Numbered from the stretch's first letter, positions 3,276 through 19,104 are shown. The stretch: DNA of 24,196 nt from an uncultured archaeon (GCA_964373795.1 CAYJVY010000002.1:1-24196); one strand, 5' to 3'. Notes: generated from the letters alone by a model not told the origin. Program-made: numbers and translations.

Positions 3276-3731
3276 ATGACTAAAAAAAATAATGTAATTG
3301 AGTTTGAATTCGATTTAGATCAATTAGAAGGATTATTCGAAGAAATATTATGCGAAATACTTGAATCAGAAGAAGAGTTAAATCAACCAATAACTTTGGG
3401 GTTTACAATTAAAATAGTTGATGGCAAAAAATCAAATATTAAAAGAATTGATTTTGAAAGAGTTAAAGAAGAACCAAATCCACTAATTAATGTTGTAGAG
3501 CAAAAAACCAATGTGGAGGTAACAATTGATTTAGCAGGAATTAATGATAAAAAAATCGATTACGGAGTTTATAGAAACAAGTTTTTTGTTAAAATCAATT
3601 CCTTAAATTTTTATAAAGAGTTTCTCTTCAATAAAATGTTAAACAGACAAATAAGGAGAAAAATAAAAAATAATATACTTATTTTGTCTTTTACTAAAAA
3701 AAACAGTCAAACAAATGTAAACAAAAACTAA
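3276..3731 (+). CDS. Hypothetical protein with possible Hsp20/alpha-crystallin-like C-terminal domain
   Basis: PLINVVEQKTNVEVTIDLAGINDKKIDYGVYRNKFFVKINS...IKNNILILSFTKK resembles the ACD pattern (P.vDv.E....v.v.vdlPGv.kedI.v.v..n.L.I ... NGvL.i.l.K). The similarity is weak and judged by eye. A TATA-like TTTTAAATATTT (3247-3258) overlaps the rnhB stop, about 24 nt before the ATG. Confidence 0.4.
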   Translation: MTKKNNVIEFEFDLDQLEGLFEEILCEILESEEELNQPITLGFTIKIVDGKKSNIKRIDFERVKEEPNPLINVVEQKTNVEVTIDLAGINDKKIDYGVYRNKFFVKINSLNFYKEFLFNKMLNRQIRRKIKNNILILSFTKKNSQTNVNKN

Positions 3732-4460
3732 TTATTTTTTGAAGTAAATTATTAAAATAACTGTTAAAGCAATTAATGAAATCAGTATTAAATTATTTTC
3801 CGGAACAGTTATTGGCTTTTTTTCTCTTGCAATAGTAAAACTAGTTGAAGCAACATTATTGAATAAATTGTCAAGCGAATTTGAATCGGATAAATTTTGT
3901 AATTCAGCTATTGCTTGATAGCTTTTCCCTTCTGAAAAAACAGGAGAAGCAATTGAATATGTTTGAGTTTCTTGAATGGAAGTATTTGCTGCAACGCTTA
4001 TAAATTTTGTTTGCCTTGAACCTTGAACTTCGGTTTTAGTTGCAGAATCAATTAAATAGAAAACTATTTTTTGACTTGAAATATTTTTGCTTGAAAAATT
4101 ATTTATAGTTGTTTGCAAGCTTACACTTGAAGGCAATCCCGAAGAATTTGGAAGAAAAGCAATATTAGGAGTTGCAGTAATTTTTGTTAAACCCCATACA
4201 TCAACTATTTTTAAAAACCCGCAAACTTCAGGGAATTTATCTAAGCAAATAACTAATGGATTTAAGCATCCGCCTACAGACAACTCTATCTTGAAATTAT
4301 TTGAGTCAAGTTTTTCTTTTCCCCCAGTATCAGCACAAATATATCCAATAAAATTATTTCCAGAACCAATTGGATCTAAAGTATAAGTTAATTGGGAAAA
4401 GACTGATTGAATGAAAAAAAGCAAGGCAAACAAGACAATTAAATAATTGAATTCCTTCAT
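3732..4460 (-). CDS. Exported protein with signal peptide and C-terminal transmembrane anchor
   Basis: N-terminus MKEFNYLIVLFALLFFIQSVFSQ is signal-peptide-like. The C-terminus ...PENNLILISLIALTVILIIYFKK is a hydrophobic helix plus basic tail. Four Cys in the N-terminal half and several N-x-S/T sequons. Last gene of the 8421->3732 cluster. Confidence 0.7.
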   Translation of the reverse strand: MKEFNYLIVLFALLFFIQSVFSQLTYTLDPIGSGNNFIGYICADTGGKEKLDSNNFKIELSVGGCLNPLVICLDKFPEVCGFLKIVDVWGLTKITATPNIAFLPNSSGLPSSVSLQTTINNFSSKNISSQKIVFYLIDSATKTEVQGSRQTKFISVAANTSIQETQTYSIASPVFSEGKSYQAIAELQNLSDSNSLDNLFNNVASTSFTIAREKKPITVPENNLILISLIALTVILIIYFKK

Positions 4461-4787: not shown

Positions 4788-4977
4788 TTGCTTTGTTTGA
4801 GAATTAATTTCATTTGAAGATGCAGTCGTGTTTTCAAATTTACTTGATTCAAGTATATTTGAATCAACATTGTCTTGAGAATTGTTGAAGGAATTGAAAA
4901 TAAAAAATGCATTAAAAGAAATTAGTATTAAAACTATTAAAATTAAAATTAATCTAATTGGTTTAATTTAATTCACC

Positions 4978-7900
4978 TTAAGAGGTAAATTGGATTTGAA
5001 TTGATTCAGTTATGGAGCCTTTTTTTATTGAGACTTTTATTTTATGGCTTGCTCCGGGAACTAGTTTGCATGTCTCGCCTGTTCCAGGGCCTCCAATTGC
5101 ATAATTTATTTGTCCATTATTGATTTCTTTTCCAGTTGTTTTACATCCTTCTTCTCCTTTACTTGAATCTAAATCAATTACTTCTGCATCAAAAGAACCA
5201 TTATCTAATGGCTTATTTGGAGTGACTGTTTTGTCAACTATAAATCCATTTAATGGAATAACTGTATTCAGAGAAGAAGCTGTTAATGGAATCCCTCCTC
5301 CATAGGGGCAGTCAGGGTGTTGGTCAACTATTGGAACTGCACCTTGATCTATTGCTCCTTGAAATGCTTCTGTTACTCCACTTACTTGGCTTTGAGTATG
5401 TAAAGTAATTGATTTTCCTTCAACTTGAAGGCCATCTCTTGCATCAAATTTACAACTCCAAATCTCTATTGGCTGAGAATTAGTTGCTTTTGCATCAAAG
5501 TAAGCTGATTTAATTATTGAAGGATATTGAGGGTCGTCATTGCTTATATAAATTGAAGGAGTATCGTTTAAACTTGAAATAGATCTATTCAAGTTATTTG
5601 CGTTTTTTGTTCCTTCAATGTAAATTGATTGAATTGCATTATTTGGATTAGATGTTTTAGGCAAACCTCGATTAATAATTATTTGTCTTTGAGTATTTGT
5701 TGCTCCAATTAAAACTAGTTGGGAATTTTTTAAATAAAGATGATCCTTTAAATTAATTCTTCCATTAATTCTTGAAATCCAGCTATTAGTTAATTCAAGC
5801 ACTTCCCCTGAAATGTTTTTAATTTCATTCCCTGAATCGCTTACATTTGGATTAATTGAGGATTCGTTTTTTAATTCAAGTTTTTTAAATTTTAATTCAG
5901 CTGGACCAAAATTTTGAATAGTTGAATTATCTAATGAAATAACTCCATTTAAGTCAGTGAAATTAGTTGAAGCATTATTCATGAACTGAATAGTTGAATC
6001 ACTTAAATAAATATTGTTAGAAGATTTTAATTCATCAATTCTTCCATTTACGCCAGTAAAACTTATTTTGTTTAAAGAAATATCTCCTGCAGTGGATTCA
6101 ATTTTAAATGTTGCTTCAGGAGAAGTTATTTCGCTTGTTGCAAGGTTAGTGAAAACAATTGATTTAGCTGTAATGCTTGGAATTAAGCTTGCATCTCCAA
6201 AAAACACAGTTGCTAAATTGTTTCCAGTGAAAGCAATTGAACCATTTGAAGCAGTAATTGCTCCTTTAACTGTTCTTACTTGTCCAAGATTTTCAGAGTC
6301 ATTCCAAAAAGCAGGAGGACTAGCATTGTGAACTGAAATGTTTCCATTTAAAGCAGTAATGCCTGTAATTCCAGTTGAATTGTCCCCATCAATTCTAGAA
6401 TTAGATACAGTAATATTTTGAGCAACAGTAATTGCTCCTTTCAAGTTTCGCAATCCTCTTTTAGAGTCTTTAACAGTTAAAGATCCAATTGAAACATTAA
6501 TGTCTCCCGCTCCATTAATTGCTCCATTATCTTCTTCTCCTAAAAATACTCCAGTAACATTTAATCCATCTGTTCCTTCAACTTTTATTGCAATAGGGTT
6601 TGAAAACTTTAAAGTTGAATCAACTAAACTAGTTTTTCCTAAAACAATGAATTCTGAATCAGGAATGGTTTCAAAATGCATGTCATAAATCATTGAAGAA
6701 TTCACGATTAAATTTCCTGAAGTTGAAAGTTTTCTAACTCCTCTTAAGACAGCACTATTTAGAGTAATGTTTGAAGGCTTTGCTGCTTGATTTCCTGCAG
6801 TAGTTTTATCAAAATCAGGCATTGAAAGCTCGTAAAATCCTTTATCTCCAAATTTTCCTCCTTCAAATTTTAGTTCTCCATTAGTTGCAAGTCTTAAAGG
6901 CTTGAGGGAAGTGATTAACCAATTATTTGAAGGCCCTTGACCTTTGAAAGAAATTCCTTTTCCAGGAGCAGTTGCAGTAATCTCAAAATTCTCTGTTGCA
7001 TTGCCTCCTAGATTTAAAATCATTGGAGAATTAAATGTTCCAGCATTAGAGTTATCAAAAACAATTTCACCTGACTTGGATTTAATGAAATCAATTCCTG
7101 ATGAAGCATCACCGCTAAGCAATGCATTGAATACTTTAATATCTTTTTCAACTATTACTGGCCCTCCTTTAATGTTTAAAATTCCACTAGAAGGCTGATA
7201 TGCAGGCTGATAAGAAGGTGAAGCCTCTCCAATTAACAATGCTCCTGCAAGTACATTAACTGTTTCAGGAGAATTAATGGTTGAAATATTAAGTAAAGAA
7301 AGTCCAGTTGCTCCTCTAACAAACACTGGTTTTGGAGTAGTAAAAGACAATCCAGAAGAATTAAAGGAAAGATTTCCTGAAACATCAAGATTAGTTGTTA
7401 ATCCTAAAACATTACTTGAAGTCGCTGAAAAATTTCCTCCAATTAACACAGGCCCAGAAGAAGAAACATTAGTGAAAAGACCTGAATTCAAAGTCAAATC
7501 CCCTACAACATTAAAGTCCTTAAAAGTCCGATCAAAATTTGATGAAGAAATATTTGCTGAGCCAACTTGAAATACCCCTTCTCCTCCTGAAACAAATCCA
7601 ATAGTTGAACCAGTAGAAGTTAAAACTCCATTTACATGAATTCCTTCTTTTGGAGAAGCATTCACAATTTTACTGTAATTCATGTTTCCAAAAACAGCAT
7701 TAGTCAAAGTAGCATTTCCACTCACATTTAATATATATGCTCCATCAATTGAAAATCTGTTGTCACGATAAGAGTCTTGAACTCCAGTAATTGATGCATT
7801 TCCTTGAACAGTTATTGGCCCTGATTGATAGAAATGAATTTTTGATTTCTCCATATCTAAATTGCCTTTAACAATTATTTCAGGAGATCCAATGCCAAGC

Positions 7901-8421
7901 CATTTCAAGTAATCGATTGCAGCAGAGTCTCGCATAATTAAATCTTTATCTATTACAATTTTTTCAAATCTATGAAGAGAACCATATGGTCCAAAAGAAC
8001 TTCCAGGATCTGAACGAGCGCCTCGCAAAGTTAAAGTCCCGGGTAACAAGAAATCGCATTGACTTTGAGTTACTCCAATTGAGCAATAAATTCTGGAATT
8101 AGTTGTTTCAACATTCCAAGGAATTAAAATACTTGAATCGCTTCGCTTAAAATCTCCTCGAACATCTAAGTCAACGTTATTTAAAACCCATTTCACTTCA
8201 GTTAGCTGAGGAAAATCAGCTCTTGCTTTTACTTGCTGCCAATGATTATCAAAACTAGTGGAGTCTAAAAAAATTCCAGCAGTATTATTAATAGTGCAAA
8301 TAAAAACATTGTTCACTACGCTTGCATCATCGCATACAACGTATTGTTTATTTGCTGCAGCTGAAGCAAGTGAAATTAAAAGCAGTGAAAAAAATGCAAT
8401 TAAAAGAATTTTAAAATTCAT
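4978..8421 (-). CDS. Giant secreted beta-helix-like, N/S/T/G-rich surface protein (about 1147 aa from the ATG at 8421)
   Basis: The ATG at 8421 starts MNFKILLIAFFSLLLISLASAAA (signal peptide). The listed start at 8469 is a TTG, and a TATA box lies inside that extension. The body has degenerate approximately 20-25 aa units such as VSGNATLTNAVFGN, VVGDLTLNSGLFTN, VSGNLSFNSSGLSF, KGAITVAQNITVSNS, KGAITASNGSIAFTGN, typical of parallel beta-helix adhesin-like proteins. No C-terminal hydrophobic anchor. Confidence 0.8.
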   Translation of the reverse strand: MNFKILLIAFFSLLLISLASAAANKQYVVCDDASVVNNVFICTINNTAGIFLDSTSFDNHWQQVKARADFPQLTEVKWVLNNVDLDVRGDFKRSDSSILIPWNVETTNSRIYCSIGVTQSQCDFLLPGTLTLRGARSDPGSSFGPYGSLHRFEKIVIDKDLIMRDSAAIDYLKWLGIGSPEIIVKGNLDMEKSKIHFYQSGPITVQGNASITGVQDSYRDNRFSIDGAYILNVSGNATLTNAVFGNMNYSKIVNASPKEGIHVNGVLTSTGSTIGFVSGGEGVFQVGSANISSSNFDRTFKDFNVVGDLTLNSGLFTNVSSSGPVLIGGNFSATSSNVLGLTTNLDVSGNLSFNSSGLSFTTPKPVFVRGATGLSLLNISTINSPETVNVLAGALLIGEASPSYQPAYQPSSGILNIKGGPVIVEKDIKVFNALLSGDASSGIDFIKSKSGEIVFDNSNAGTFNSPMILNLGGNATENFEITATAPGKGISFKGQGPSNNWLITSLKPLRLATNGELKFEGGKFGDKGFYELSMPDFDKTTAGNQAAKPSNITLNSAVLRGVRKLSTSGNLIVNSSMIYDMHFETIPDSEFIVLGKTSLVDSTLKFSNPIAIKVEGTDGLNVTGVFLGEEDNGAINGAGDINVSIGSLTVKDSKRGLRNLKGAITVAQNITVSNSRIDGDNSTGITGITALNGNISVHNASPPAFWNDSENLGQVRTVKGAITASNGSIAFTGNNLATVFFGDASLIPSITAKSIVFTNLATSEITSPEATFKIESTAGDISLNKISFTGVNGRIDELKSSNNIYLSDSTIQFMNNASTNFTDLNGVISLDNSTIQNFGPAELKFKKLELKNESSINPNVSDSGNEIKNISGEVLELTNSWISRINGRINLKDHLYLKNSQLVLIGATNTQRQIIINRGLPKTSNPNNAIQSIYIEGTKNANNLNRSISSLNDTPSIYISNDDPQYPSIIKSAYFDAKATNSQPIEIWSCKFDARDGLQVEGKSITLHTQSQVSGVTEAFQGAIDQGAVPIVDQHPDCPYGGGIPLTASSLNTVIPLNGFIVDKTVTPNKPLDNGSFDAEVIDLDSSKGEEGCKTTGKEINNGQINYAIGGPGTGETCKLVPGASHKIKVSIKKGSITESIQIQFTS

Positions 8422-8448
8422 TAACCTTCCCCAGAGTTCATTAAAATT

Positions 8449-8460
8449 TCTATATAAATC
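8449..8460 (-). promoter_or_regulatory. TATA box candidate for the surface-protein cluster
   Basis: The minus strand reads GATTTATATAGA, centred about 33 nt upstream of the ATG at 8421. It lies inside the TTG-extended version of the ORF, which argues for the 8421 start. Confidence 0.45.
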
Positions 8461-8567
8461 CAAATGCAATTAATTTATATCATTATATATTTAATATATT
8501 TAAAACTAACGATTACAAGTATTAATGAACTCTTTTACATAAATAGTTGAATAATTTAAGTGATTGA

Positions 8568-8915
8568 ATGAAATCAGAATGGGATTTAAATAAAATTGCA
8601 ATTGCAATAATTGCATTAATTGTAATTTTGTTAATTGCATACTTTGTTTTTTTAACTCCAAAAGACAAGCAAGAAAAAAATAACATATTAAATGATAACA
8701 CTCAAGATAAAAACACTGAAACTGATTCAAAAAATACTTCAACAAATTCTACTAATGAAAGTAAAACAAAAATAGAGTCAAAGGATAAAAACCTTGAAGG
8801 AACAACTGTTTTACTGCCTGAGCTGCCAAAACAACCAGAAAAAATCATTACACCTGAAAACGTTAAAGAACCAGAATTAGGAAAAGACTCTGAAACAAAA
8901 CAACCTGCAAGGTAA
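8568..8915 (+). CDS. Small membrane-anchored protein with low-complexity K/N/T/E-rich tail
   Basis: N-terminal TM helix IAIAIIALIVILLIAYFVFL followed by a polar, probably disordered tail. The overlapping minus-strand ORF 8506-8745 looks like low-complexity noise. Confidence 0.55.
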   Translation: MKSEWDLNKIAIAIIALIVILLIAYFVFLTPKDKQEKNNILNDNTQDKNTETDSKNTSTNSTNESKTKIESKDKNLEGTTVLLPELPKQPEKIITPENVKEPELGKDSETKQPAR

Positions 8916-8977
8916 TCGTTCGCTCGCCGAGCGCGAGGGCTGACGTCGGCCTTCAGCTTCGCTGGATGAACGCGCTT
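8916..8977 (+). other. GC-rich (about 68% by hand count) structured non-coding island; candidate small RNA or cis-regulatory RNA upstream of ahcY
   Basis: TCGTTCGCTCGCCGAGCGCGAGGGCTGACGTCGGCCTTCAGCTTCGCTGGATGAACGCGCT. Hairpins: CGCTC/GAGCG (8921-8925 with 8929-8933); GGCTG/CGGCC (8938-8942 with 8947-8951, loop ACGT); TTCAGC/GCTGGA (8952-8957 with 8961-8966, loop TTC). An enclosing helix AGCGCG/CGCGCT pairs 8930-8935 with 8971-8976. Strand assignment is tentative. Confidence 0.4.
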
Positions 8978-9042
8978 TGAAAAGTATTTTAATTGTTTGT
9001 TTGTAATTTTTTTAGGAGAGTATTGAATGCAGAGGTTGGGAA

Positions 9043-10299
9043 ATGAATTTTGATGTAAAAGATTTAGGTTTAGCTGATAAAGGATTGCAGAGAATTGAAT
9101 GGGCTGAAAAAGACATGCCTGTTTTAAGACTGATTAAGGAGAGATTTGAAAAGGAAAAGCCTTTGAAGGGAATTAGAATTGGTTGTTGCTTGCATGTAAC
9201 AACTGAAACAGCTAATTTAATGCTTACCTTAAAAGCTGGAGGAGCAGCGCCTTTTTTGTGTGCTTCAAATCCTTTGTCAACGCAAGACAATGTAGCAGCT
9301 GCTTTAGTGAAATTTCATAAAATTCCTGTTTTTGCAATTACAGGAGAAGATAATAAAACTTATTACAAGCATTTAAATCAAGTGCTTGATGCAAAACCTC
9401 AAATTACAATGGATGACGGAGCAGATCTTGTAAGCGAGATTCATTCAAAGAGAACTGAGTGCTTGAAGGAAATTTTTGCAGGCACTGAAGAAACAACTAC
9501 TGGGGTAATTAGATTTAAAGCAATGGAGAAAGACAAGGCATTAAAGTATCCAATTATTGCAGTAAACGAGGCAGACACTAAACATTTGTTTGATAACAGG
9601 TATGGAACTGGACAAAGCACTGTAGATGGAATTGTTAGAGCAACTAATAGATTGCTTGCTGGAACAAATTTTGTTGTAGCAGGATATGGCTGGTGTGGAA
9701 AAGGATTAGCAATGAGGGCAAAAGGATTAGGAGCAAACGTAATTGTAACAGAGGTTAAACCTTTAAGGGCTTTAGAGGCTAGAATGGATGGATTTAGAGT
9801 AATGCCAATGCTTGAAGCAGTTAAAGAAGCAGATTTTATTTGCACTGTAACAGGAAACAAAGATGTTTTAAGAACAGAGCATTTCAAGGCAATGAAAAAT
9901 GGATGCATTACATGTAATTCAGGGCATTTTAATGTTGAAATAAATATTAAAGAATTAGAGGCTTTAAGTAATTCACGAAAACAAGTAAAAGAATTTGTGG
10001 AAGAATTTGAATTAAAAGACGGGAAAAAAATTTTCTTGTTAGGAGAAGGAAGACTAATTAATTTAGCTGCAGCAGAAGGGCATCCAGCAGCAGTAATGGA
10101 TATGAGTTTTGCAAATCAAGCATTAAGCGCGGAATTCATTGCAAAAAATCATTCAAAACTTGAAAACAAGGTTTATGTTGTTTCAAAAGAAATTGATGAA
10201 CAAATCGCAGCATTAAAACTCAAAGCATTAGGAGTAAAAATAGATGAATTAACTCTTGAGCAAAAAAAATATTTAGAAAGCTGGCAAGAAGGAACTTAA
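9043..10299 (+). CDS. ahcY: S-adenosyl-L-homocysteine hydrolase (adenosylhomocysteinase)
   Basis: N-terminus [28 protein letters not shown]. Also [30 protein letters not shown]-binding [17 protein letters not shown] and [17 protein letters not shown]. The 418 aa length is the archaeal short form. SD GAGGT at 9032-9036. Confidence 0.95.
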
Positions 10300-10327
10300 A
10301 ATTTAATAATCTATGGAGAATTAAACA

Positions 10328-11047
10328 ATGAATAAATTTTTACCACTAGCAATTGTCGTAGTAATTTTTATTTCATTACTGGTTTTTTACACTGCTTACG
10401 ATAAACAAACCAAAACACTTGTTCCAGAAAAACTTGTAAGTGTAGTATTGTTTAAAGATGTTGCAAATTCGTTAAAGGAATTAAACAAAGTTGCAGCTTT
10501 AGCTGCAATTGGATTAATTGCAATTACATTTATTTTAGGCCCTCTATCAAAAATTTTTCCAAAAATTTTTTCACAATTTCTTTTCACTAGAAAATTTATT
10601 GGATTAAGCGGATTTGTATTTGCTTTTTTACATGCGCTTTATTCAGTAATAGTGATTTATGAACTTGATTTGAATAAAATGCTTTTTGCAAATCCAAAAA
10701 TAGTGGGATTTATTTCAGCAGTTATTTCTCTTTTTATTTTCTTTTTAATGAGCATTACTTCCACTGAAAAAGCAGTTAAAGTAATGGGTTACAAAAACTG
10801 GAAAACTCTTCAAACAACTGGGTATATTGCTTTATTTCTAGCAATTCTTCACTTCATAATTTTAGAGATAAAGCCTGGTAAAGGATTTGATGTCAGGCCA
10901 TTTGGAGTATTATTTTTATTCATTGCATTAGTTGCCTTGATTTTAAAAATTTTAACTCTTTTTATTAAAGTTCCTGAAAGAAAAAGCTTTCAAGAACATG
11001 TTTCTCATTCTGAAACCGAAAACAATTCTAAAAAAGCTAAAAACTAG
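10328..11047 (+). CDS. Polytopic membrane protein, ferric-reductase-like / MsrQ(YedZ)-like transmembrane domain
   Basis: About 6 predicted TM helices with conserved-position histidines (FAFLHALYS and LAILHFIILE). A ..TSTEKAVKVMGYKNWKTLQTTGYIA.. segment resembles the S...R..lG...Wk.lH..Y pattern of PF01794-type domains. SD GGAG at 10315-10318, 28 nt after the ahcY stop, so likely co-transcribed. Confidence 0.5.
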   Translation: MNKFLPLAIVVVIFISLLVFYTAYDKQTKTLVPEKLVSVVLFKDVANSLKELNKVAALAAIGLIAITFILGPLSKIFPKIFSQFLFTRKFIGLSGFVFAFLHALYSVIVIYELDLNKMLFANPKIVGFISAVISLFIFFLMSITSTEKAVKVMGYKNWKTLQTTGYIALFLAILHFIILEIKPGKGFDVRPFGVLFLFIALVALILKILTLFIKVPERKSFQEHVSHSETENNSKKAKN

Positions 11048-11939
11048 TCAAATCTTTTAAAGCTTTAACTCTTTTCTTAATTTCATTTAAAGAAATAGTG
11101 TTTAATACATTTAATGAAAATCCTTCACAAACTAAAGAAGCTACTGCGCTTCCATGAATTATTGCTTGCCTTAAATTTTTTTCATTCACGTTTTTTTGAG
11201 TAGATAAAAATCCAATTATTGCGCCAGCAAAAGAATCTCCTGCACCAGTTGGATCAACAACTTTTTCTAAAGGATATGCAGGAGCAATGAATAATGATTT
11301 TTTTGAAAAAAGAATTGATCCATGCTCGCCTTTTTTAATAATGGCTAAAGAATTTTCATTGGTTAATAATTTTTTTCCAGCTGAAATCAAGTTAGAGTCA
11401 TTGAATAACATTTTTGCTTCAGAGTTATTCATTAAACAAACATTAACAGAGTTAATCATTTCTAAAACTTTTTCTCTTGCAGTTTCAATATAATAATCCA
11501 TTGTATCAGCTAAAACAAATTTTGGAGACTCAAATTGCTCTAAAAGCTTTAACTGATGTTCTGGATCAAGATTTCCAAGCAAAACAAATTTTGCTTGCTT
11601 GAATTCATCTGGAACAATTGGTTTAAACTTTTTCAAAGAATTTAATTCAATTGAAATTGTTTTCCTATTATTCATGTCTTTTTCGTATTCTCCAATCCAA
11701 TGCATGTTTGGCCCTGAAACTCTTTGCAATCCAGTTAAATTAATTCCTTTAAGGTAAAGTAGTTCTAAATATTTTTTTGGAAAATCTTCTCCGTACGAGC
11801 CGATTAAACCAGGTTTGCAAAACAAGCTTGCAGCAAGAGAAGCATAAACTCCTGATCCTCCTAAAATATTTTTTACTTCATTTGATTGAGTTTTAATGTC
11901 ATCTAATCCAATAGATCCAGCAATAACTGTTTCAATCAT
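11037..11939 (-). CDS. PfkB/ribokinase-family carbohydrate or nucleoside kinase
   Basis: GGSGVYAS N-terminal motif and the PfkB signature-2 motif DPTGAGDSFAGAIIG near the C-terminus; 300 aa. The 3' end overlaps the convergent gene 10328-11047 by 11 nt. Confidence 0.85.
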   Translation of the reverse strand: MIETVIAGSIGLDDIKTQSNEVKNILGGSGVYASLAASLFCKPGLIGSYGEDFPKKYLELLYLKGINLTGLQRVSGPNMHWIGEYEKDMNNRKTISIELNSLKKFKPIVPDEFKQAKFVLLGNLDPEHQLKLLEQFESPKFVLADTMDYYIETAREKVLEMINSVNVCLMNNSEAKMLFNDSNLISAGKKLLTNENSLAIIKKGEHGSILFSKKSLFIAPAYPLEKVVDPTGAGDSFAGAIIGFLSTQKNVNEKNLRQAIIHGSAVASLVCEGFSLNVLNTISLNEIKKRVKALKDLTSF

Positions 11940-12004
11940 ATGAAGAATAAGAAAAACAAAAGAAATAAATTAGTTTCTTAAAACAAAAAAGAATCAAAAA
12001 ACAG

Positions 12005-12670
12005 TTAAGCTGTTACTATTTTTTTAGTCATTGAATCAATTACTTCACTTATTTGATTCATTATTGATTCCATTTCTTTTGAAGCATCAATTTCTTTAAC
12101 CAAACCTTTTTTCTCATAATAAGTTAGTAAAGGTTTTGTTTGTTCTTTATAGGTTTCTAATCTGCTTCTAATAATTTCTTCTTTGTCATCTGTTCTTTGA
12201 AATAAAAGAGATCCATCTTTATCGCAAACTCCATCATTTTTTGGAGGAAAGTTCAATCCATAAATTGTATTGCATTTAGAGCAAACTTTTCTAGAAGTAA
12301 TTCTTTTAACAATTAATTCATCGTCAACCTTTAAATAAAATACAACATTAATTTGTTTTTCCATTCTTACAAGAATTCTTTCAAGCAAATAAATTTGTCT
12401 AACATTTCTTGGATAACCATCTAAAGTAAATCCTTTGGAATATTTTTCTTTTTTTAATTCTTCAGCAATTAATTCACTAACAAATTCATCGTCAACAAGT
12501 TTTCCTGCTTTTAATAATTTAGATATTTCTTGCCCTTTAGGAGTACCAGAATTAGCTACTTCTCTTAAAATATCTCCTGAAGAAAGCTGTGGAAAACTAT
12601 ATTTTTCCAAAATTTTTTGAGCAATAGTTCCTTTTCCTGCTCCTGGCGGACCTAAAAAAACAACGATCAA
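12005..12670 (-). CDS. adk: Adenylate kinase, long (bacterial/eukaryotic-type) form with Cys-x2-Cys...Cys-x2-Asp lid
   Basis: P-loop GPPGAGKGT, then LSSGDILRE, GFTLDGYPRNVRQ, and lid CSKCNTIYG...CDKDGSLLFQRTDD. TTG start (12668-12670) with SD GAGGAG (12676-12681) 5 nt upstream. Confidence 0.93.
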   Translation of the reverse strand: MIVVFLGPPGAGKGTIAQKILEKYSFPQLSSGDILREVANSGTPKGQEISKLLKAGKLVDDEFVSELIAEELKKEKYSKGFTLDGYPRNVRQIYLLERILVRMEKQINVVFYLKVDDELIVKRITSRKVCSKCNTIYGLNFPPKNDGVCDKDGSLLFQRTDDKEEIIRSRLETYKEQTKPLLTYYEKKGLVKEIDASKEMESIMNQISEVIDSMTKKIVTA

Positions 12671-12720
12671 GTTAACTCCTCTTTTTCAGAAAACAATATA
12701 ATTTATATACTAGGTAATAT

Positions 12721-12745
12721 AAAAAGGTTTCGTCAAAAAACGAAG
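12721..12745 (-). terminator. Hairpin plus T5 tract downstream of the small zinc-finger ORF
   Basis: The minus strand reads CTTCGT-TTTTTG-ACGAAA followed by CCTTTTTATA. The stem is 5-6 bp. This is a weak call. Confidence 0.3.
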
Positions 12746-12808
12746 TTATTTGTTCAAATTTATTTTAGATAATTATTTTACAAAGATTTGCACAACAGGA
12801 AAACAATT

Positions 12809-12958
12809 CTAACAAAACTCACATACATCTTTTTTCGATGAATCACTTTTTTCTTTACCAGATTTTTTAACACAGTCCGTAGAACAGTATTGCTTACTTC
12901 CTTTAGTTATAGATTTTTTGCTTAAACTTTTTCCACAATAATCACAAGTTTTATCCAT
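12809..12958 (-). CDS. 49-aa TRASH/MYM-like zinc-finger protein (below the ORF-track length cutoff)
   Basis: Hand translation: MDKTCDYCGKSLSKKSITKGSKQYCSTDCVKKSGKEKSDSSKKDVCEFC, stop TAG at 12809-12811. The C-x2-C-x16-C-x3-C spacing with ..YCS.DC.. fits the TRASH-type metal-binding motif. Strong SD GGAGGG (12964-12969) 5 nt before the ATG. Confidence 0.6.
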   Translation of the reverse strand: MDKTCDYCGKSLSKKSITKGSKQYCSTDCVKKSGKEKSDSSKKDVCEFC

Positions 12959-13017
12959 TAAATCCCTCCAAATTTACAACAATATTACTCTTTCCAAATT
13001 TAAAAAACTTTGTTTTA

Positions 13018-16000
13018 TTAATTCTTGGGTTTTTTAGTTTTTAATTCAAGAACTTTTTTTGAAGAAAATAAAAACCATGTAACCATTAAAACAAGCAATA
13101 CTATTGCAATAAAGTAAACAACTTGTGTTTCATCCAACCCTCCTTTTTTTATTGGTTCTTTTAACGGCTTTAAACATTTTCCATCAATACATAATAAGTT
13201 TTCTCCACAAGAAGTATTATCAGCAATTTTTTCAAATTCACATAAACCTGTTTTAGGATTACAAAAACTTGTAAGGCAAGAATTTTCCGAAGAACAAGAA
13301 ACATTTTCACACAAATCTTTAATTGCCTCTTGTTTTTCTTTTAAATTCAATAACATTGTGCTGGGAAGTGAATTAAATTGCTCTAAAGAAATATTTTTTG
13401 CAACAGAATAATTAATGTCAACAGATTTATTTACATCAACATTTGTTAATACAAATTTAATTATTGGATCCGCTTTAACGATTTCAAACCTTGTTTTACT
13501 TGAAACCTCATTTGCATTTAATGCAATTGTTTTAGGAATTTCTTCAATTAATTCAAGTCTTTCAATCAATTTATTTGAATTATTTTTTACTGTAATAGTT
13601 AAAACCGATGAAAAAGATATATTTTTGTCAACAGTTTTTTTTGTAACGTTAATTGATTTGTCAATTGAAACAAGTTTGTTAAATTCTTTTATTTCATTTA
13701 ATTTTGAATTTAATTCTGTTTCAGGGAGATTCAAAACATTTGCCAGCAATTCCTTTGAATTAATTTCATTAAATTCTTGTTTGGATTTTTGCTCTAAAAC
13801 TGTTTGAATCACTGGTTCAACATTGAGTCCTTTATTTTTATCCGAGATTTCTGTTGTTCCACCACTAACGCCCCCAGTTGTCACACCTCCACTAACAATA
13901 CCTCCTCCTGAAGGAGGAGATCCTCCTTGAGTTGGAGGCTGAGTTGAAAGCTTTACTTGGAATTGAATTGCATTTGAATCAGTCATTGAATTTCCAAATC
14001 CATCTTCACAGCTTACATAAAAAGTGTTAATGCCTTCAACTGCCAGTATATTAGTCAAATGATTTTTTGTTCCCTCACCATTTTCAAATTGTTTTATCAT
14101 AGAATTATAATCAGTTGAAGTCAAAGAATGCCTGCAAAAAGCATTTTCATTTGTTGAAGCAGTTAAGGTTACAGTTAAAGAGGTTTGATCGTTGTTCGGC
14201 CCAATTGAAATAATTTTTGGAGCATTCAAGTCTTGAATCACTAATCCGAAGTCACTAAAAGAATTCACGTCAACAAATGCAAATTCTTCATTTAAGTCAA
14301 CTCCAAAGCTATTGCCGTCAACTGAATACTCGGATGGATGCATCCAATAATTTAAATCAGAATTCCATTTAAAGATTAAAAAGTTTTCTGGAATGAAATC
14401 ACTACTAAAATTTAAGTCATTAAAGTAAACCTTTACTCTAATTTTTTCAAGTTTTTGAAGAGTATTGAAATTAGATGAAAGCGAAACAAATTTATCTGCA
14501 CTTTTTGTCTTCGGAGTTTTAACTGCATCTTTTACTTTACTTGTTTTTGGAGGGTTAAAATCATAGATAGTTGCATCTATAACTCCATTTGATAAATTTT
14601 CTTTGGCAAAAAAATCAAATCCAATGCCTAAACTTGATTTAATTATTTTATGAATTTTTCCTTTTTCAATAGAAATATTTTCATCTTTAGAAGAATTATT
14701 TGAAGGAATGACTGCAAAACTTAAAACATTTTTTAACTCAGTTTTTCTTTCCTTTTTAGTTGAAGCAATAATGTCAATAAAGTAAAGCCCTTTCTTCAAA
14801 TCATTTGAAGAAATTCTTGCAGCAAAAACATTTTGATCATTAAGAGTTAATGGAATTGATTTAATTCCTTTTTTCTTTTCTTCTTCTAAACTAATTAATG
14901 CATCAACATTTGTAATGCCATGAATTGATTCCACTTCGACTTGTAAATTAATTGTTTCACCTATTTTTGCAAATCTTTTATCAATTGAAAAAGATTTAAT
15001 TATGGGAATAATTTGTAAAAACGCGTAAACGGTTTTAATTGATTCAGTGTTGCCTGCTAAATCAATTGAATAAAATTTAATTAAATGATTTCCATCTTCA
15101 TTAATTAAAACTCTTGATCCGGATTTAAAGTTTTCATCAACTCCTTCAATCAAGTAATAAGTTTTATTTATTCCAGACAAATTATCTAGTGCATTTAATT
15201 GAACAAAATATGGAGAAAATTGAGGCGCTAAAGGAATTAATGCAGTTGTAATAGGCGCGTTAAAGTCAAGCTTTAATTCTTTTGACTTAATTGATTCAGT
15301 GTTATCCTCATTGTCAACTGAATAATATTTAATTAAATGAATTCCTTCTCTGGATACAGAAAAGGAATTTCCGTCAACCCAGTTTGCATCGTTTAATTTA
15401 TAGAAAGTATTTTTTACTCCTGTTCCAGAATCAGTTGCAGTTAAAACAACATTAAAACCATAATTAATGAATTCACTTGGAATGTTGTCATTAGTTATTG
15501 GAGGACTAAAGTCAAATGAAAGATTTAAGTCCTGAACTTTCTCAGAATTTCCTGCGCGATCAATTGAATAAAATTTAATTGATTTTTTTCCTTCACCACT
15601 TAAAACAACTCTGTTTAAGTCAACAAAGTTTTCATTAACTCCTTCAACCAATGCATAAGTGGCTTTCACTCCAGACAAATTATCTGTTGCATTAAAGTCC
15701 AGCCAAACTGTTTTAGCATTAACGTCTTGAGAAATCTTGTAAGTAGTTACTGGTTTAGTCCAATCAAGTTTAACTTGTTTAGTTTTTGGTTGCTCTTTAT
15801 GGCCTACCCCATCAACAGCGTAAAAACTGAAGTTATAGATTCCTTCATTTTTAAAATAATAAGTTCTAGTCCATTTATCAAATTTAACCCAATTTCCGTC
15901 ATCAATTTTATAGTAAAGATCTTTAATTCCAGTAGCAGTATCTCGAGGACTTAAAGTAACTGTGAAAGCAGAATTTACAAACCCTAAAGGAATATTATCA

Positions 16001-19000
16001 CTTGTATAAGGAGGAGAAAAATCGTAAACCACATTTACATCTTTTACTTTTTCAATGTTTCCAGCATTATCAGTGGAATAATATTCAAGTAAATGAGTTC
16101 CCTCTGATTCAATGAGTATTTTTGTTCCTTTTTTGAAACTATTTTTATCAGGATACCTGTTTAAATTGTAAAAAGTTTCTTTTACTCCTGAAAAATTATC
16201 TAAAGGAATTAAGTCAATGTTTAAAGCGGTTTCTTGAAATTGTTTTGGAGCATTATCAGTTGTTTGCGGAGGAGTATTATCTGATTTAAAAGTCATTAAA
16301 TCTTGTGCAGAGTTATTTAATGCATCAAATGCAACTGCTTTAAACGAATGATTTGAATCGGATACAAGGGTTGAATTAAAATCAAATTCATATAAATTTG
16401 TTTCAACATTAAATTTATCTTGCCCGATTTGTCCAACAAGTTTGCCATCAACAAAGAAATCAATTGATTCAATCCAAGAATCTTCATCGTCCGCATCAAT
16501 GCTTATTTTTTCAATTCCTTGAATGAATTCTTTTTTAATTGGCTTAATTGAAATTTTTGGAGGCTCTTTATCATTTGTGGGCGGAAGTCTCTTGAGTTTT
16601 TGACTTCCTGAAAGAGTTTCCCCAAAAGAGTTCGCAGTAAACTTAACATTTAATTCATTCAATTTCTTAATTGAGCCTTTTAAAGTCCATTGAATTGTTT
16701 TAGATTCATTTGGGTTGATTGAAGAGATCACTTGATTTTTGTCGCCATTAATTAATTCAAATCCTTGTGGAACACTAATTGAAACAACTGCATTTGAAAC
16801 AAAAAGATCCCCTTTATTTGAAAGAACTGCATTAACTAGGATTTGGTTTTTCTTTTCCTCGCTGCTTTCAACAGCCAAATTCAAGTCAGGCCCTAATAAA
16901 GGAATTAACTCTTGAGAAGCCGCTAAAGAAAATTTTTCAAAATTTTCATCAGGCGGACTAAAATTTTTATCAAACGCTTTAACTTTAATTAAAAATTCTC
17001 CTGAAGAATTTGATTCAACTTGTTCAACATTATCTAATCTACTAGTAGAAGAAGAAATTTCCTGACCATTTGAAAAATTAAATAAATATAAATCTAAATC
17101 ATTTAAAGGATAATAAATAGATGGAAACTGTGATCCAGAATAAATAATGTGTCTATTCCAAACAAGAGTTGCTTTATCTCCTAAATTAAAATTTGTTTTA
17201 TAAAACTTGAATTCATTTTTTAACACTTTACTTGAAAAAACAAAATTTTTTTCAAAAAAAGCTTTATTCAAATCAATATAACCCCAACCATAATGAGGAT
17301 CCCAACCCCTGGTTCCAAAATCCTCTGCAGAATTAATTAATAATGCTTTAACTTCATTTGGATTTAAACCAATGTCAGTTAAAATTGTTGCCGCTCCTGA
17401 AACATGAGGAGCAGCCATTGAAGTTCCACTAGCACTTTTCCATAAATTTCCTTGTTCCCAAAAAGCGTTAGCAGAAGTAATATTACTTCCAGGTGCAACA
17501 ATGTCTGGTTTTTTTCTTCCATCAACAGTTGTTCCTCTACTACTAAAATATGAAACAATATCATCAGCTCTATTAACTGTTCCCCTGTCATCCATGGATC
17601 CAACAGTGATTACATTATAAGCATCTCCAGGAGTACCAATTGTTTTCAATCCAGAACCAGAATTTCCAGCAGCAAAAACCAATACAACATTAAAATTATC
17701 TGTTAAGGCATCCATAAAACGAGTTGACCCTGATTCACCATTTGCATTACAAAGCGAGCAACCCCAAGAATTATTTAAAACATCTGCAGGAGTTTGCAAT
17801 TCAATTACAGCCCAACTTAATACCCTCATTGAATCAGAAAAACTTCCAGACCCAGTTTTACTCAAAAATTTTGCATTAATTAAATGCTTAACTCCTCTTG
17901 CAATTCCTCCATAAACATTATCAACTCCTGCAGAAATTCCAGTTACATGGGTTCCATGAAAATGCAAGTCATCAACAGTTGTATCAGATGAAAACTCTTT
18001 TTGATCAAAAACCCTTAGAATTCCTGAAATATTTTTTTCAATAGCAGGATGAGTTATATCAATTCCAGTATCAACAATTCCTAAATCTGCTTCTCCTCCA
18101 AGCAAATTAGCGTCAATCCATGTACGCAATTTAATTGAATCAGTAGAAGTTGAAAGCAAGGGATTAACTTCCTCAAAAGGCATAAGGTTTTCTTGAAGCA
18201 ATAAATAATTTTTTTGATTAAACAAATTATACAAGCTAGTTAACTGAGGTATTTGCAAACTTAAAAAATTAACGAAAACTTTTTGAAAATTATATTGAAT
18301 CCTTCCAAGAGAAGACCCTAAATCAACATTTTTTGGAACAGAAAAAATTTCTTCATTAGTGGAAATTGAAGCAATTAATTCAGTTTCAGATAATTCATCT
18401 AATTTATTTAATGGGATTTCGATTATTAATATATTCAATAAATTTTCTTGTTGTAAAATCGTTCCACCATTTTGTTGAACAAAATCAATAACACCATTAC
18501 TTTGTTGCTGTCTTATATCAAAAGATTTTTGAATTATTTCTTTTTTAATTGAATCTCTTAATTCATCAAGTTCTTGCTGGTCTTTTTTTAATTTAGTCAT
18601 CTCAGCTTCAGATAAAGTATTAAGCTTCTCTGAAGAAATTAATAAATTATTTCCAGTTTTAGGAAGTATTTCATCTGTTATTTCCTTAATTTCATTTTTT
18701 TTACTAATCAATTGATTTTCAAAATTTTCTTGAACTTCTTTTGAAATAACACTAACATTTTGATCTCTTAAAAAAAGAATCACTTGAATGACTTCAGTCG
18801 AATCAGGATTCGTATTAAATTTTTCAAGTAAATAACTGTCAAGTTTTAAATTTAAATTAGTCAATTCATTTGGCAAATTTTTTGACTCTTCATTTAAAAT
18901 TTCCTCAGCTGAATTAAAATCATTTCCTTTTTCATCAATTAAAATAATTTCTCCTGAATAGGTATTTTTATCAATTAAATATTCTTGTTGAGTTAAAGGG

Positions 19001-19104
19001 CTTACAAAGGCTTCCTGTTCGCTAGCAAAAGAATTATCCAAAAATGTTAAGAAAAAAAATAAAACAAGAAACTTTGCCAGCAACATTTTTTTTACATTAC
19101 ACAT
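13018..19104 (-). CDS. Giant membrane-anchored subtilisin-like serine protease (peptidase S8) with multiple beta-sandwich domains
   Basis: Signal peptide MLLAKFLVLFFFLTFLDNSFA. Catalytic triad motifs: GIVDTGID (Asp codon 18070-18072), HGTHVTG (His 17956-17958), SGTSMAAPHVSG (Ser 17419-17421). Downstream: a CARDB-like segment, an Ig-like segment, five ~83-aa repeats, Gly-rich hinge GGSPPSGGGIVSGGVTTGGVSGG (about 13855-13945), Cys-rich module (13174-13311) and TM helix VVYFIAIVLLVLMVTWFLF with a basic tail. Confidence 0.9.
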   Translation of the reverse strand: MCNVKKMLLAKFLVLFFFLTFLDNSFASEQEAFVSPLTQQEYLIDKNTYSGEIILIDEKGNDFNSAEEILNEESKNLPNELTNLNLKLDSYLLEKFNTNPDSTEVIQVILFLRDQNVSVISKEVQENFENQLISKKNEIKEITDEILPKTGNNLLISSEKLNTLSEAEMTKLKKDQQELDELRDSIKKEIIQKSFDIRQQQSNGVIDFVQQNGGTILQQENLLNILIIEIPLNKLDELSETELIASISTNEEIFSVPKNVDLGSSLGRIQYNFQKVFVNFLSLQIPQLTSLYNLFNQKNYLLLQENLMPFEEVNPLLSTSTDSIKLRTWIDANLLGGEADLGIVDTGIDITHPAIEKNISGILRVFDQKEFSSDTTVDDLHFHGTHVTGISAGVDNVYGGIARGVKHLINAKFLSKTGSGSFSDSMRVLSWAVIELQTPADVLNNSWGCSLCNANGESGSTRFMDALTDNFNVVLVFAAGNSGSGLKTIGTPGDAYNVITVGSMDDRGTVNRADDIVSYFSSRGTTVDGRKKPDIVAPGSNITSANAFWEQGNLWKSASGTSMAAPHVSGAATILTDIGLNPNEVKALLINSAEDFGTRGWDPHYGWGYIDLNKAFFEKNFVFSSKVLKNEFKFYKTNFNLGDKATLVWNRHIIYSGSQFPSIYYPLNDLDLYLFNFSNGQEISSSTSRLDNVEQVESNSSGEFLIKVKAFDKNFSPPDENFEKFSLAASQELIPLLGPDLNLAVESSEEKKNQILVNAVLSNKGDLFVSNAVVSISVPQGFELINGDKNQVISSINPNESKTIQWTLKGSIKKLNELNVKFTANSFGETLSGSQKLKRLPPTNDKEPPKISIKPIKKEFIQGIEKISIDADDEDSWIESIDFFVDGKLVGQIGQDKFNVETNLYEFDFNSTLVSDSNHSFKAVAFDALNNSAQDLMTFKSDNTPPQTTDNAPKQFQETALNIDLIPLDNFSGVKETFYNLNRYPDKNSFKKGTKILIESEGTHLLEYYSTDNAGNIEKVKDVNVVYDFSPPYTSDNIPLGFVNSAFTVTLSPRDTATGIKDLYYKIDDGNWVKFDKWTRTYYFKNEGIYNFSFYAVDGVGHKEQPKTKQVKLDWTKPVTTYKISQDVNAKTVWLDFNATDNLSGVKATYALVEGVNENFVDLNRVVLSGEGKKSIKFYSIDRAGNSEKVQDLNLSFDFSPPITNDNIPSEFINYGFNVVLTATDSGTGVKNTFYKLNDANWVDGNSFSVSREGIHLIKYYSVDNEDNTESIKSKELKLDFNAPITTALIPLAPQFSPYFVQLNALDNLSGINKTYYLIEGVDENFKSGSRVLINEDGNHLIKFYSIDLAGNTESIKTVYAFLQIIPIIKSFSIDKRFAKIGETINLQVEVESIHGITNVDALISLEEEKKKGIKSIPLTLNDQNVFAARISSNDLKKGLYFIDIIASTKKERKTELKNVLSFAVIPSNNSSKDENISIEKGKIHKIIKSSLGIGFDFFAKENLSNGVIDATIYDFNPPKTSKVKDAVKTPKTKSADKFVSLSSNFNTLQKLEKIRVKVYFNDLNFSSDFIPENFLIFKWNSDLNYWMHPSEYSVDGNSFGVDLNEEFAFVDVNSFSDFGLVIQDLNAPKIISIGPNNDQTSLTVTLTASTNENAFCRHSLTSTDYNSMIKQFENGEGTKNHLTNILAVEGINTFYVSCEDGFGNSMTDSNAIQFQVKLSTQPPTQGGSPPSGGGIVSGGVTTGGVSGGTTEISDKNKGLNVEPVIQTVLEQKSKQEFNEINSKELLANVLNLPETELNSKLNEIKEFNKLVSIDKSINVTKKTVDKNISFSSVLTITVKNNSNKLIERLELIEEIPKTIALNANEVSSKTRFEIVKADPIIKFVLTNVDVNKSVDINYSVAKNISLEQFNSLPSTMLLNLKEKQEAIKDLCENVSCSSENSCLTSFCNPKTGLCEFEKIADNTSCGENLLCIDGKCLKPLKEPIKKGGLDETQVVYFIAIVLLVLMVTWFLFSSKKVLELKTKKPKN
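15020..16280 (-). repeat. Five tandem ~83-aa beta-sandwich repeats inside the S8 protease gene
   Basis: Each unit begins D(N/F/W)(T/S/N)(P/K/A)P.T and contains D..SG(V/I)K.T(F/Y)Y and EG.H.(I/L).(Y/F)YS.D.AGN.E..K. For example, DFSPPYTSDNIPLGF.. vs DFSPPITNDNIPSEF.., and ATDNLSGVKATYALVEGVNENF vs ALDNLSGINKTYYLIEGVDENF. Confidence 0.7.

Follow-up and report, generated by a model that had tools for sequence, protein, structure and literature searches.

What kind of protein is encoded by a single gene that fills a quarter of a 24,196-nucleotide stretch of archaeal DNA, and what might it do at the cell surface? The stretch, which comes from an uncultured archaeon (GCA_964373795.1 CAYJVY010000002.1:1-24196) and is referred to at its full length as the window, carries on its minus strand one uninterrupted ATG-to-TAA open reading frame (ORF) of 2028 codons (13018-19104; 25% of the window length by ORF calling). 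A preliminary description, made from the sequence, had correctly singled out this 6.1-kb gene as about a quarter of the window and had presented its product as a membrane-tethered subtilase with an unusually long pre-catalytic region and a Cys-rich stalk. We propose that the gene product is probably an extracellular subtilase that is made as a zymogen and anchored in the membrane as a type-I protein, and that its tether-held catalytic head would cleave extracellular proteins or proteins of neighbouring cells. Both headline oddities have more ordinary explanations, namely a predicted I9-type prodomain enlarged by a helical hairpin and an anchor cassette that is widely shared, and it is this conserved, so far unannotated cassette that we regard as the most useful product of the analysis. 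From the N-terminus to the C-terminus, the protein is divided as follows (Tk-SP is the subtilase of Thermococcus kodakarensis with the structure 3afg; P0003, P0083, P0097 and P0172 are homologous proteins; pLDDT, predicted local distance difference test):

19021-19104, minus strand: signal peptide, residues 1-28 (MCNVKKMLLAKFLVLFFFLTFLDNSFA followed by SE), read from the sequence as a hydrophobic N-terminus and a small-residue, cleavage-like motif.
18838-19020, minus strand: acidic N-terminal leader without an assigned fold, residues 29-89 (AlphaFold2 pLDDT 30-50).
18334-18837, minus strand: predicted I9-type prodomain in which a ~95-residue helical hairpin replaces helix 1, residues 90-257 (AlphaFold2, Foldseek, Smith-Waterman).
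18100-18333, minus strand: low-confidence linker, residues 258-335, possibly a degenerate second I9 strand (AlphaFold2 pLDDT <50; BLASTP to P0172).
17260-18099, minus strand: Peptidase S8 domain, residues 336-615, with D345, H383, N481 and S562 (Pfam PF00082; PDB match 3afg).
16900-17259, minus strand: Tk-SP-type beta-jelly-roll, residues ~616-715 (Tk-SP alignment to residue 710, AlphaFold2, Foldseek).
16555-16899, minus strand: CARDB/NEW3-like beta sandwich, residues 736-850 (weak Pfam NPCBM_assoc match, E=0.037; aligns with P0003 and P0172).
16273-16554, minus strand: Big_7-type immunoglobulin (Ig)-like domain, residues 851-944 (Pfam PF17957, E=1.6e-4, 22.7 bits against a cut-off of 24.1).
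15013-16272, minus strand: five tandem OmpL47-type beta-barrel repeats, residues 945-1364 (NCBIfam NF047446, repeat alignment).
14230-15012, minus strand: two Ig-like segments, A (residues 1365-1470) and B (residues 1471-1625), with homologous stretches in P0083 and P0097.
13945-14229, minus strand: two-Cys Big_13-like domain C, residues 1626-1720 (AFCRHS...YVSCEDGFGN), found as tandem arrays in other proteins.
13810-13944, minus strand: Gly/Ser/Thr/Pro-rich hinge, residues 1721-1765 (composition; a similar low-complexity linker precedes the cassette in relatives).
13330-13809, minus strand: cassette domain D, a beta sandwich with an inserted helical hairpin, residues 1766-1925 (AlphaFold2 pLDDT 85-97; invariant N, IPK..A, DP, F and Y).
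13150-13329, minus strand: cassette domain E, an eight-Cys knot, residues 1926-1985 (Cys conservation; five short strands in AlphaFold2, pLDDT 82-92).
13021-13149, minus strand: short spacer, transmembrane (TM) helix (~residues 1992-2013) and Lys-rich 16-residue cytoplasmic tail (hydropathy, AlphaFold2).

By its sequence, the protein belongs to peptidase family S8 and, within it, to the Tk-SP/KP-43-like group that carries a jelly-roll. The Pfam Peptidase_S8 model (PF00082) matched residues 341-608 with E=1.6e-47 and 162.7 bits against a cut-off of 21.8, and the positions at which a complete catalytic triad had been placed decode exactly to D345 in VDTG, H383 in HGTH and S562 in GTSMAAPH. Together with the oxyanion-hole Asn (N481 in AAGNSG), the triad is invariant in an alignment with 16 homologues. 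Tk-SP was the best sequence match in the PDB (E=2.4e-35, residues 335-711), followed by KP-43 (1wmd; residues 342-717), and both alignments continue past the S8 domain through the beta-jelly-roll, whose strands are predicted by AlphaFold2 with moderate confidence and match 3afg and 1wmd in Foldseek. The same domain is present in P0003, in P0172 and in P0004, an S8 peptidase from Acidobacteriota that is among the best S8 matches. The preliminary description, which let CARDB-like and Ig-like modules follow the protease, missed the jelly-roll that comes directly after the S8 domain.

The region in front of the protease had been described as roughly 330 residues of charged, coiled-coil-like sequence, far longer than a standard I9 propeptide. 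It is indeed unusually long, but its first 28 residues constitute a putative signal peptide, and the remainder is not predicted to be a plain coiled coil. We modelled residues 29-730 with AlphaFold2 from a 17-sequence alignment (mean pLDDT 68, predicted template modelling score 0.73); in this model, the S8 domain is predicted with confidence, and residues 90-254 (pLDDT 70-94) form a beta strand (105-112), two antiparallel helices (117-150 and 166-211), two further strands, a short helix and a last strand. The predicted arrangement corresponds to the topology known from I9-type prodomains (beta-alpha-beta-beta-alpha-beta), except that a hairpin of ~95 residues stands in for helix 1. When the N-terminal model was compared with the PDB by Foldseek, Tk-SP (3afg) came out on top with E=1.9e-29 and 544-659 aligned columns including the propeptide, followed by KP-43, pro-Tk-subtilisin and fervidolysin (9ues, 1wmd and 5fax among the top matches). 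In addition, the region and the P0004 prodomain can be aligned end-to-end by Smith-Waterman, with z=6.9 relative to 300 shuffles. Model and alignment thus argue for an enlarged version of the standard I9-type device, common to at least one relative, rather than for an unrelated coiled coil; as such, the enlarged prodomain would be a small addition to the known variation among subtilase zymogens.

The segments flanking the predicted prodomain (residues 29-84 and 258-328) stay below pLDDT 50 in the model. Profile scans and homologue searches found no family and no homologue for the leader (residues 29-89), neither Pfam nor NCBIfam gave a match for residues 29-340, a word-index search with the N-terminal 340 residues returned nothing, the parent protein itself included, and BLASTP gave no alignment to the prodomain of P0003. 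Residues 297-335 of the linker do have a BLASTP alignment: in P0172, it covers the canonical I9 domain at its C-terminal end and continues into the sequence behind it. Because this is the region of the C-terminal I9 strand, the low-confidence linker may be what is left, in degenerate form, of a second I9 element.

Between the catalytic head and the membrane lies a long series of beta-sandwich modules. The five tandem repeats that had been recognised earlier are of the OmpL47 type: NF047446 matched five stretches with E=1.7e-66 and 220.6 bits against a cut-off of 40, and the repeats, each of ~83 residues, are 20-42% identical to one another. Neither Pfam nor NCBIfam held a family for the Ig-like segments A and B, which come next. 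The two-Cys module is a widespread repeat domain, with up to 31 matched stretches in the 5994-residue protein P0031 (HMMER), and proteins made up of it match the Pfam models Big_13, Y_Y_Y or DUF4625. The Gly-rich hinge and the single C-terminal TM helix, with the Lys-rich tail behind it, were likewise found where they had been expected. Given that ~1380 residues of beta-sandwich modules separate the protease from the membrane and that a signal peptide is predicted at the N-terminus, the protease domain would sit at the membrane-distal end of the stalk, as had been suggested.

The C-terminal part of the protein follows a fixed order that we refer to as the anchor cassette: a low-complexity linker, domain D, the eight-Cys knot E, a short spacer that is frequently rich in Pro, a TM helix and, last, a basic tail. 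Residues 1760-2028 were modelled with AlphaFold2 from a 13-sequence alignment (mean pLDDT 85). The single TM stretch reaches a hydropathy maximum of 2.9 and coincides with a helix at model residues 233-263, and the eight cysteines of the knot lie at residues 1932-1977. Across 13 cassettes, seven of the Cys columns of the knot never vary, and the eighth (C173) shows a conservation of 90% or more; the window protein, whose domain D is the 'EEIPK/DPII' sandwich, has every invariant column, with N, IPK..A, DP, F and Y in domain D as well as all eight cysteines.

Pfam and NCBIfam are without a model for this cassette, and domain D showed weak DUF11 and CBM2-like resemblances only. We considered a carbohydrate-binding module and rejected it, as a Foldseek comparison with the PDB gave no match at E<=0.001, the best being weak CBM2-like and mu-homology sandwiches. 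The knot had been labelled EGF/disintegrin-like, and of this label the eight cysteines stand, while profile scans found no EGF match and the matches in the window protein are all below threshold (ADAMTS_CR_2, 18.9 bits against 27.3; Dicty_CTDC, 15.6 against 27). In relatives, the knot passes the Dicty_CTDC cut-off of 27 with 31-36 bits, and a cassette profile compared with the PDB retrieved the disintegrin-like domains of ADAMTS-13 and ADAMTS-1 weakly (E=0.04-0.09). Judged by these scores, 'disintegrin-like' describes a resemblance of the knot, not membership in a family. Sorting by an LPXTG or PGF-CTERM signal was rejected as well: no CTERM or LPXTG model matched the C-terminal 279 residues at E<=1, and neither a PGF nor an LPXTG motif is present. 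Among 10 relatives, one sub-threshold LPXTG match was found. On this sequence evidence, the window protein is not anchored by a sortase or archaeosortase.

Many cassette C-termini (P0039-P0174) display a Pro-rich spacer, a 'D-[YWFN]-T' element just where the TM helix begins, a helix end rich in Tyr and a tail of Lys and Arg. Taken together, these features look like a sorting signal, although no known CTERM or LPXTG model matches it; in the window protein (residues 1986-2028), the position of the element reads 'DET'.

How widely is the cassette used? An exhaustive HMMER search with residues 1345-2028 against 1.84 billion cluster representatives gave 1005 matches at E<=1e-3, of which 149 representatives were listed. 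The matches fall into two classes, repeats of the two-Cys module and the cassette from the hinge to the C-terminus. Domain D occurs in 70 of the 149 listed representatives, and hence in at least 70 protein clusters; in 47 of these 70, D and E lie no more than 90 residues from the C-terminus, with a hydrophobic helix and then a basic tail behind them. P0039, for example, aligns to residues 1765-2027 of the window protein (query positions 421-683) with E=2.3e-40. A word-index search with the cassette alignment, by comparison, found a single match. The Cys-rich stalk pointed out in the preliminary description is therefore real but not peculiar to the protease, being part of an anchor used with many passengers. 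Pfam domains in 53 cassette proteins include Big_7, Big_13, CARDB, Laminin_G_3, DUF2341, polysaccharide deacetylase and FG-GAP. Twenty cassette proteins were looked up, ten of which had any source name and four an informative one: MDO8627522.1, MFH1224321.1 and MFH1225613.1 are from 'Candidatus Diapherotrites archaeon' and MFA4855683.1 is from an 'archaeon', all annotated as hypothetical or merely Ig-like. The cassette thus appears to be conserved and unannotated and, among the members named so far, confined to DPANN-labelled archaea.

Proteases are recurrent passengers of this anchor. Among the 53 proteins scanned with Pfam, one, P0172 (1376 residues), has an S8 domain; it is 31% identical to the window protein over 911 residues (E=1e-88), along a stretch that starts shortly ahead of the S8 domain and reaches into the repeats, and 29% identical in the cassette (E=1e-18), and its prodomain is short and canonical (Pfam Inhibitor_I9). 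A metagenome scan with a four-sequence cassette alignment added 14 further loci. One of these, L055 (3750-8771, plus strand, contig NPID01000316.1, 25% GC), encodes a 1673-residue S8 protease on a cassette-type anchor, in the order fervidolysin-type prodomain, S8 domain, OmpL47-type repeats, two two-Cys domains, domain D, Kazal domain and TM helix. Protease heads therefore recur at least three times on the cassette anchor, all of them with a triad. The preliminary description had asked about loss of catalytic residues in close orthologues, and the two proteins of the same architecture, P0172 and L055, both keep their triads intact. Both have short, canonical prodomains and fewer repeats than the window protein, so that among the three cassette-anchored proteases only the latter has an enlarged pre-catalytic region.

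Two side observations belong to these loci. In L055, a Kazal-type protease-inhibitor domain takes the place of the eight-Cys knot, which puts an inhibitor next to the membrane in a tethered protease, a curious combination; a Kazal-like sequence in the position of the knot was also seen in one cluster representative. At another locus, L052, two D-domain matches (3520-3867 and 8363-8506) lie ~5 kb apart on one metagenome contig, an indication that a genome may have its cassette genes in clusters or in expanded number.

One may go further and regard the cassette as the mark of a lineage-specific, so far undescribed surface-display system of DPANN-type archaea, in which a shared pedestal would present host-facing passengers, possibly with a sorting or processing step of its own at 'D-[YWFN]-T', and the protease would be one host-directed effector among others. 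We consider this rather unlikely on present evidence; if true, however, it would extend to dozens of passengers, including proteases, lectin-like domains, deacetylases and Ig arrays.

How would the protease work? Export, prodomain-assisted folding and autocatalytic removal of the prodomain are well-established subtilase biology (Tk-SP, subtilisin E), and what we infer for the window protein with regard to export, autoprocessing, surface retention, substrates and physiological role follows this course. The N-terminal signal peptide would direct export by the Sec pathway, after which the hairpin-enlarged I9-type prodomain would chaperone the S8 domain and inhibit it until autoprocessing removes the prodomain, as happens with Tk-SP and other subtilases. 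The mature head, consisting of S8 domain and jelly-roll, would remain tethered to the membrane of the cell that made it by ~1380 residues, or roughly 13 beta-sandwich or barrel modules, ending in the cassette of hinge, domain D, knot, TM helix and basic tail. Fully extended, such a tether could hold the active site at a distance of tens of nanometres from the membrane, and beyond the cell's own envelope, if ~13 modules of a few nanometres each are assumed. The head would then cleave extracellular proteins or proteins of neighbouring cells, and the most plausible role in a small-genome archaeon would be the harvest of peptides, the loosening of a partner's proteinaceous surface, or both.

Several points weigh against this proposal. 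The prodomain assignment derives from one AlphaFold2 model and one pairwise alignment; Pfam I9 (PF05922) and the fervidolysin prodomain model (PF22148) do not match residues 29-340 even at E<=10, and an hhalign comparison of the prodomain with those of homologues was not significant (E=0.56). The proposal, moreover, assigns no role to residues 29-89 and 258-335. The neighbours of the gene are housekeeping genes (adk, a pfkB-family kinase, S-adenosylhomocysteine hydrolase and Trm5), with no peptide transporter or host-interaction gene among them, and the genomic context therefore lends no functional support. The Gly-rich hinge could also be a site of shedding, in which case the protease would not stay tethered, and the episymbiont lifestyle of the source is an assumption.

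The same architecture could belong to a protein that is mainly an adhesin or surface scaffold and whose S8 domain acts only in cis, for instance by cleaving off the protein's own prodomain or by severing the stalk so that the ectodomain is released. Most of the mass of the protein is indeed made up of adhesin-type modules (OmpL47-type, Big_7 and Big_13-like), most cassette-bearing proteins are without an enzyme domain, and Tk-SP is known to remove its own C-domain (PMC3599501). We nevertheless judge a role confined to cis cleavage to be improbable, given that the catalytic domain is full-length and resembles the degradative subtilase Tk-SP, with a conserved substrate-binding framework, and that the return of a protease head on this anchor in at least three proteins argues for the protease as the functional payload. 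A tethered subtilase might also be dedicated to the maturation of surface proteins of its own cell, such as S-layer proteins, pilins or other cassette-anchored proteins, in the manner of mycosins or other processing subtilases. Dedicated processing proteases are often membrane-tethered, secreted or anchored proteins are encoded nearby (3732-4460 and 4978-8469), and there is a weak similarity to the NCBIfam mycosin model, but its 94.8 bits fall far below the cut-off of 278.75 and the best relatives (Tk-SP, KP-43 and fervidolysin) are degradative enzymes. Moreover, a stalk of ~1380 residues would hold the active site far from membrane-proximal substrates, and no operon links the gene to a substrate gene in the window, which makes a maturation role unlikely.

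That the gene is a mis-assembled fusion or a decaying pseudo-protease is scarcely credible: although the contig is metagenome-derived, exact look-ups found no existing record of the full protein (nor of the neighbouring Trm5) and no close orthologue turned up in the word-index search, the catalytic residues are intact, the GC content is even along the gene (~29% for the window) and 2028 stop-free codons have a chance probability of ~1e-73, calculated from the base composition and stop-codon frequency of the window. A mis-joined chimera or a frameshift, which the preliminary description had advised looking for, was not seen and is very unlikely, since two independent Logan assemblies (ERR3478686 and ERR4904391) are 100% identical to window positions 4827-15110 and 11300-14094, jointly taking in the last 696 codons of the gene (3' 2.1 kb), and since P0172 is collinear with the window protein from the S8 domain through the repeats to the anchor (BLASTP). 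The missing orthologue is itself a weak statement: the word-index search with the whole protein returned only the protein itself and S8-only or repeat-only matches, and the tool missed this family, for which exhaustive HMMER recovered 1005 relatives of the C-terminal third. A GTDB genome scan with the same C-terminal third gave no match. An ORF of 130 residues on the opposite strand (13415-13807, plus strand) lies inside the protease gene and is most likely a chance ORF.

The housekeeping genes of the window are archaeal (TFB, RNase HII, Trm5/Taw2, DUF63 and DUF357). Further along the minus strand, an ORF at 4978-8469 encodes 1163 residues with a signal-peptide-like N-terminus and N/S/G-rich repeats that by eye have the look of a parallel beta-helix; it showed no Pfam or NCBIfam match, no C-terminal TM helix and no module in common with the large protease, and is probably another secreted surface or adhesin protein. 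A second ORF (3732-4460, minus strand; 242 residues) has a signal peptide and a C-terminal TM helix with a KK tail, as in a small type-I surface protein, and no family was found for it in profile scans. Between the protease gene and adk lies a Cys-rich, zinc-ribbon-like ORF of 49 residues (12809-12958, minus strand; CxxC ... C ... C ... CxxC), which is preceded by GGAGG and was also called as a gene in two Logan contigs. The adenylate kinase itself (12005-12670, minus strand) is a long, bacterial-type enzyme that has a lid domain, and its GTDB matches were bacterial only, at no more than 35% identity (Bacteroidales at 35% being the best), with no archaeal match returned; this pattern may reflect horizontal acquisition or merely the lack of a close relative in GTDB.

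Small-genome archaea that live on other cells need peptides and face the protein coat of their partner, and few of their surface enzymes are understood. The gene described here offers a clean and complete example of a protease predicted to be displayed far from the membrane, and a profile of the cassette could serve to inventory, from sequence alone, which surface proteins cassette-bearing organisms have.

Among proteins of known structure, Tk-SP is the best match to the window protein both by sequence and by predicted fold. The Tk-SP zymogen has an N-terminal propeptide of 113 residues that is removed by autoprocessing (PMC3599501). It is a secreted enzyme of ~640 residues without an anchor, whereas the window protein has a pre-catalytic region of ~310 residues with a predicted helical-hairpin insertion, ~1300 additional stalk residues and a TM anchor.

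In its proposed working principle, the window protein resembles the large cell-envelope subtilases. Lactocepin PrtP, the streptococcal C5a peptidase and the archaeal pyrolysin are multi-domain S8 proteases of 1400-1900 residues with an enlarged pre-pro region. A long spacer of beta-sandwich and helical domains keeps these enzymes on the envelope, where those of lactic acid bacteria harvest peptides, and their attachment is through an LPXTG/sortase signal or through binding to the cell wall. In contrast, the anchor of the window protein is a TM helix that follows the D sandwich and the Cys knot, with no LPXTG match, and its stalk domains are, as far as the Pfam and NCBIfam scans go, not homologous to the A, B and H domains of PrtP.

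Giant surface proteins with protease heads have also been described in DPANN archaea. SPEARE proteins of Nanohaloarchaeota combine a membrane-distal serine-protease region with adhesion domains and a C-terminal TM helix and have been proposed to act on the host; their hallmark is a conserved cytoplasmic type III restriction-enzyme portion together with laminin-G domains (PMC6642349). The window protein shares with them the giant size, the distal serine protease and the TM helix near the C-terminus, but we rejected membership, as its cytoplasmic tail has only 16 residues and Pfam and NCBIfam scans found neither a laminin-G nor a restriction-enzyme domain. In Nanobdella aerobiophila, thermopsin-like proteins have a peptidase that sits on Ig-like folds and a TM helix at the C-terminus, and the authors speculate that they degrade the host S-layer (bioRxiv 10.1101/2023.10.27.564410); these peptidases are thermopsins and the window protein is an S8 enzyme. 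For the window protein, the preliminary description had likewise suggested that it could degrade a host S-layer, or else scavenge nutrients. Subtilases of the cell envelope are thus already known, as are giant DPANN surface proteins that carry a protease head, and current concepts are unchanged by the protein described here, which P0172 and the L055 protein match in carrying an S8 domain on OmpL47-type repeats and in ending with the same D-domain cassette and TM helix.

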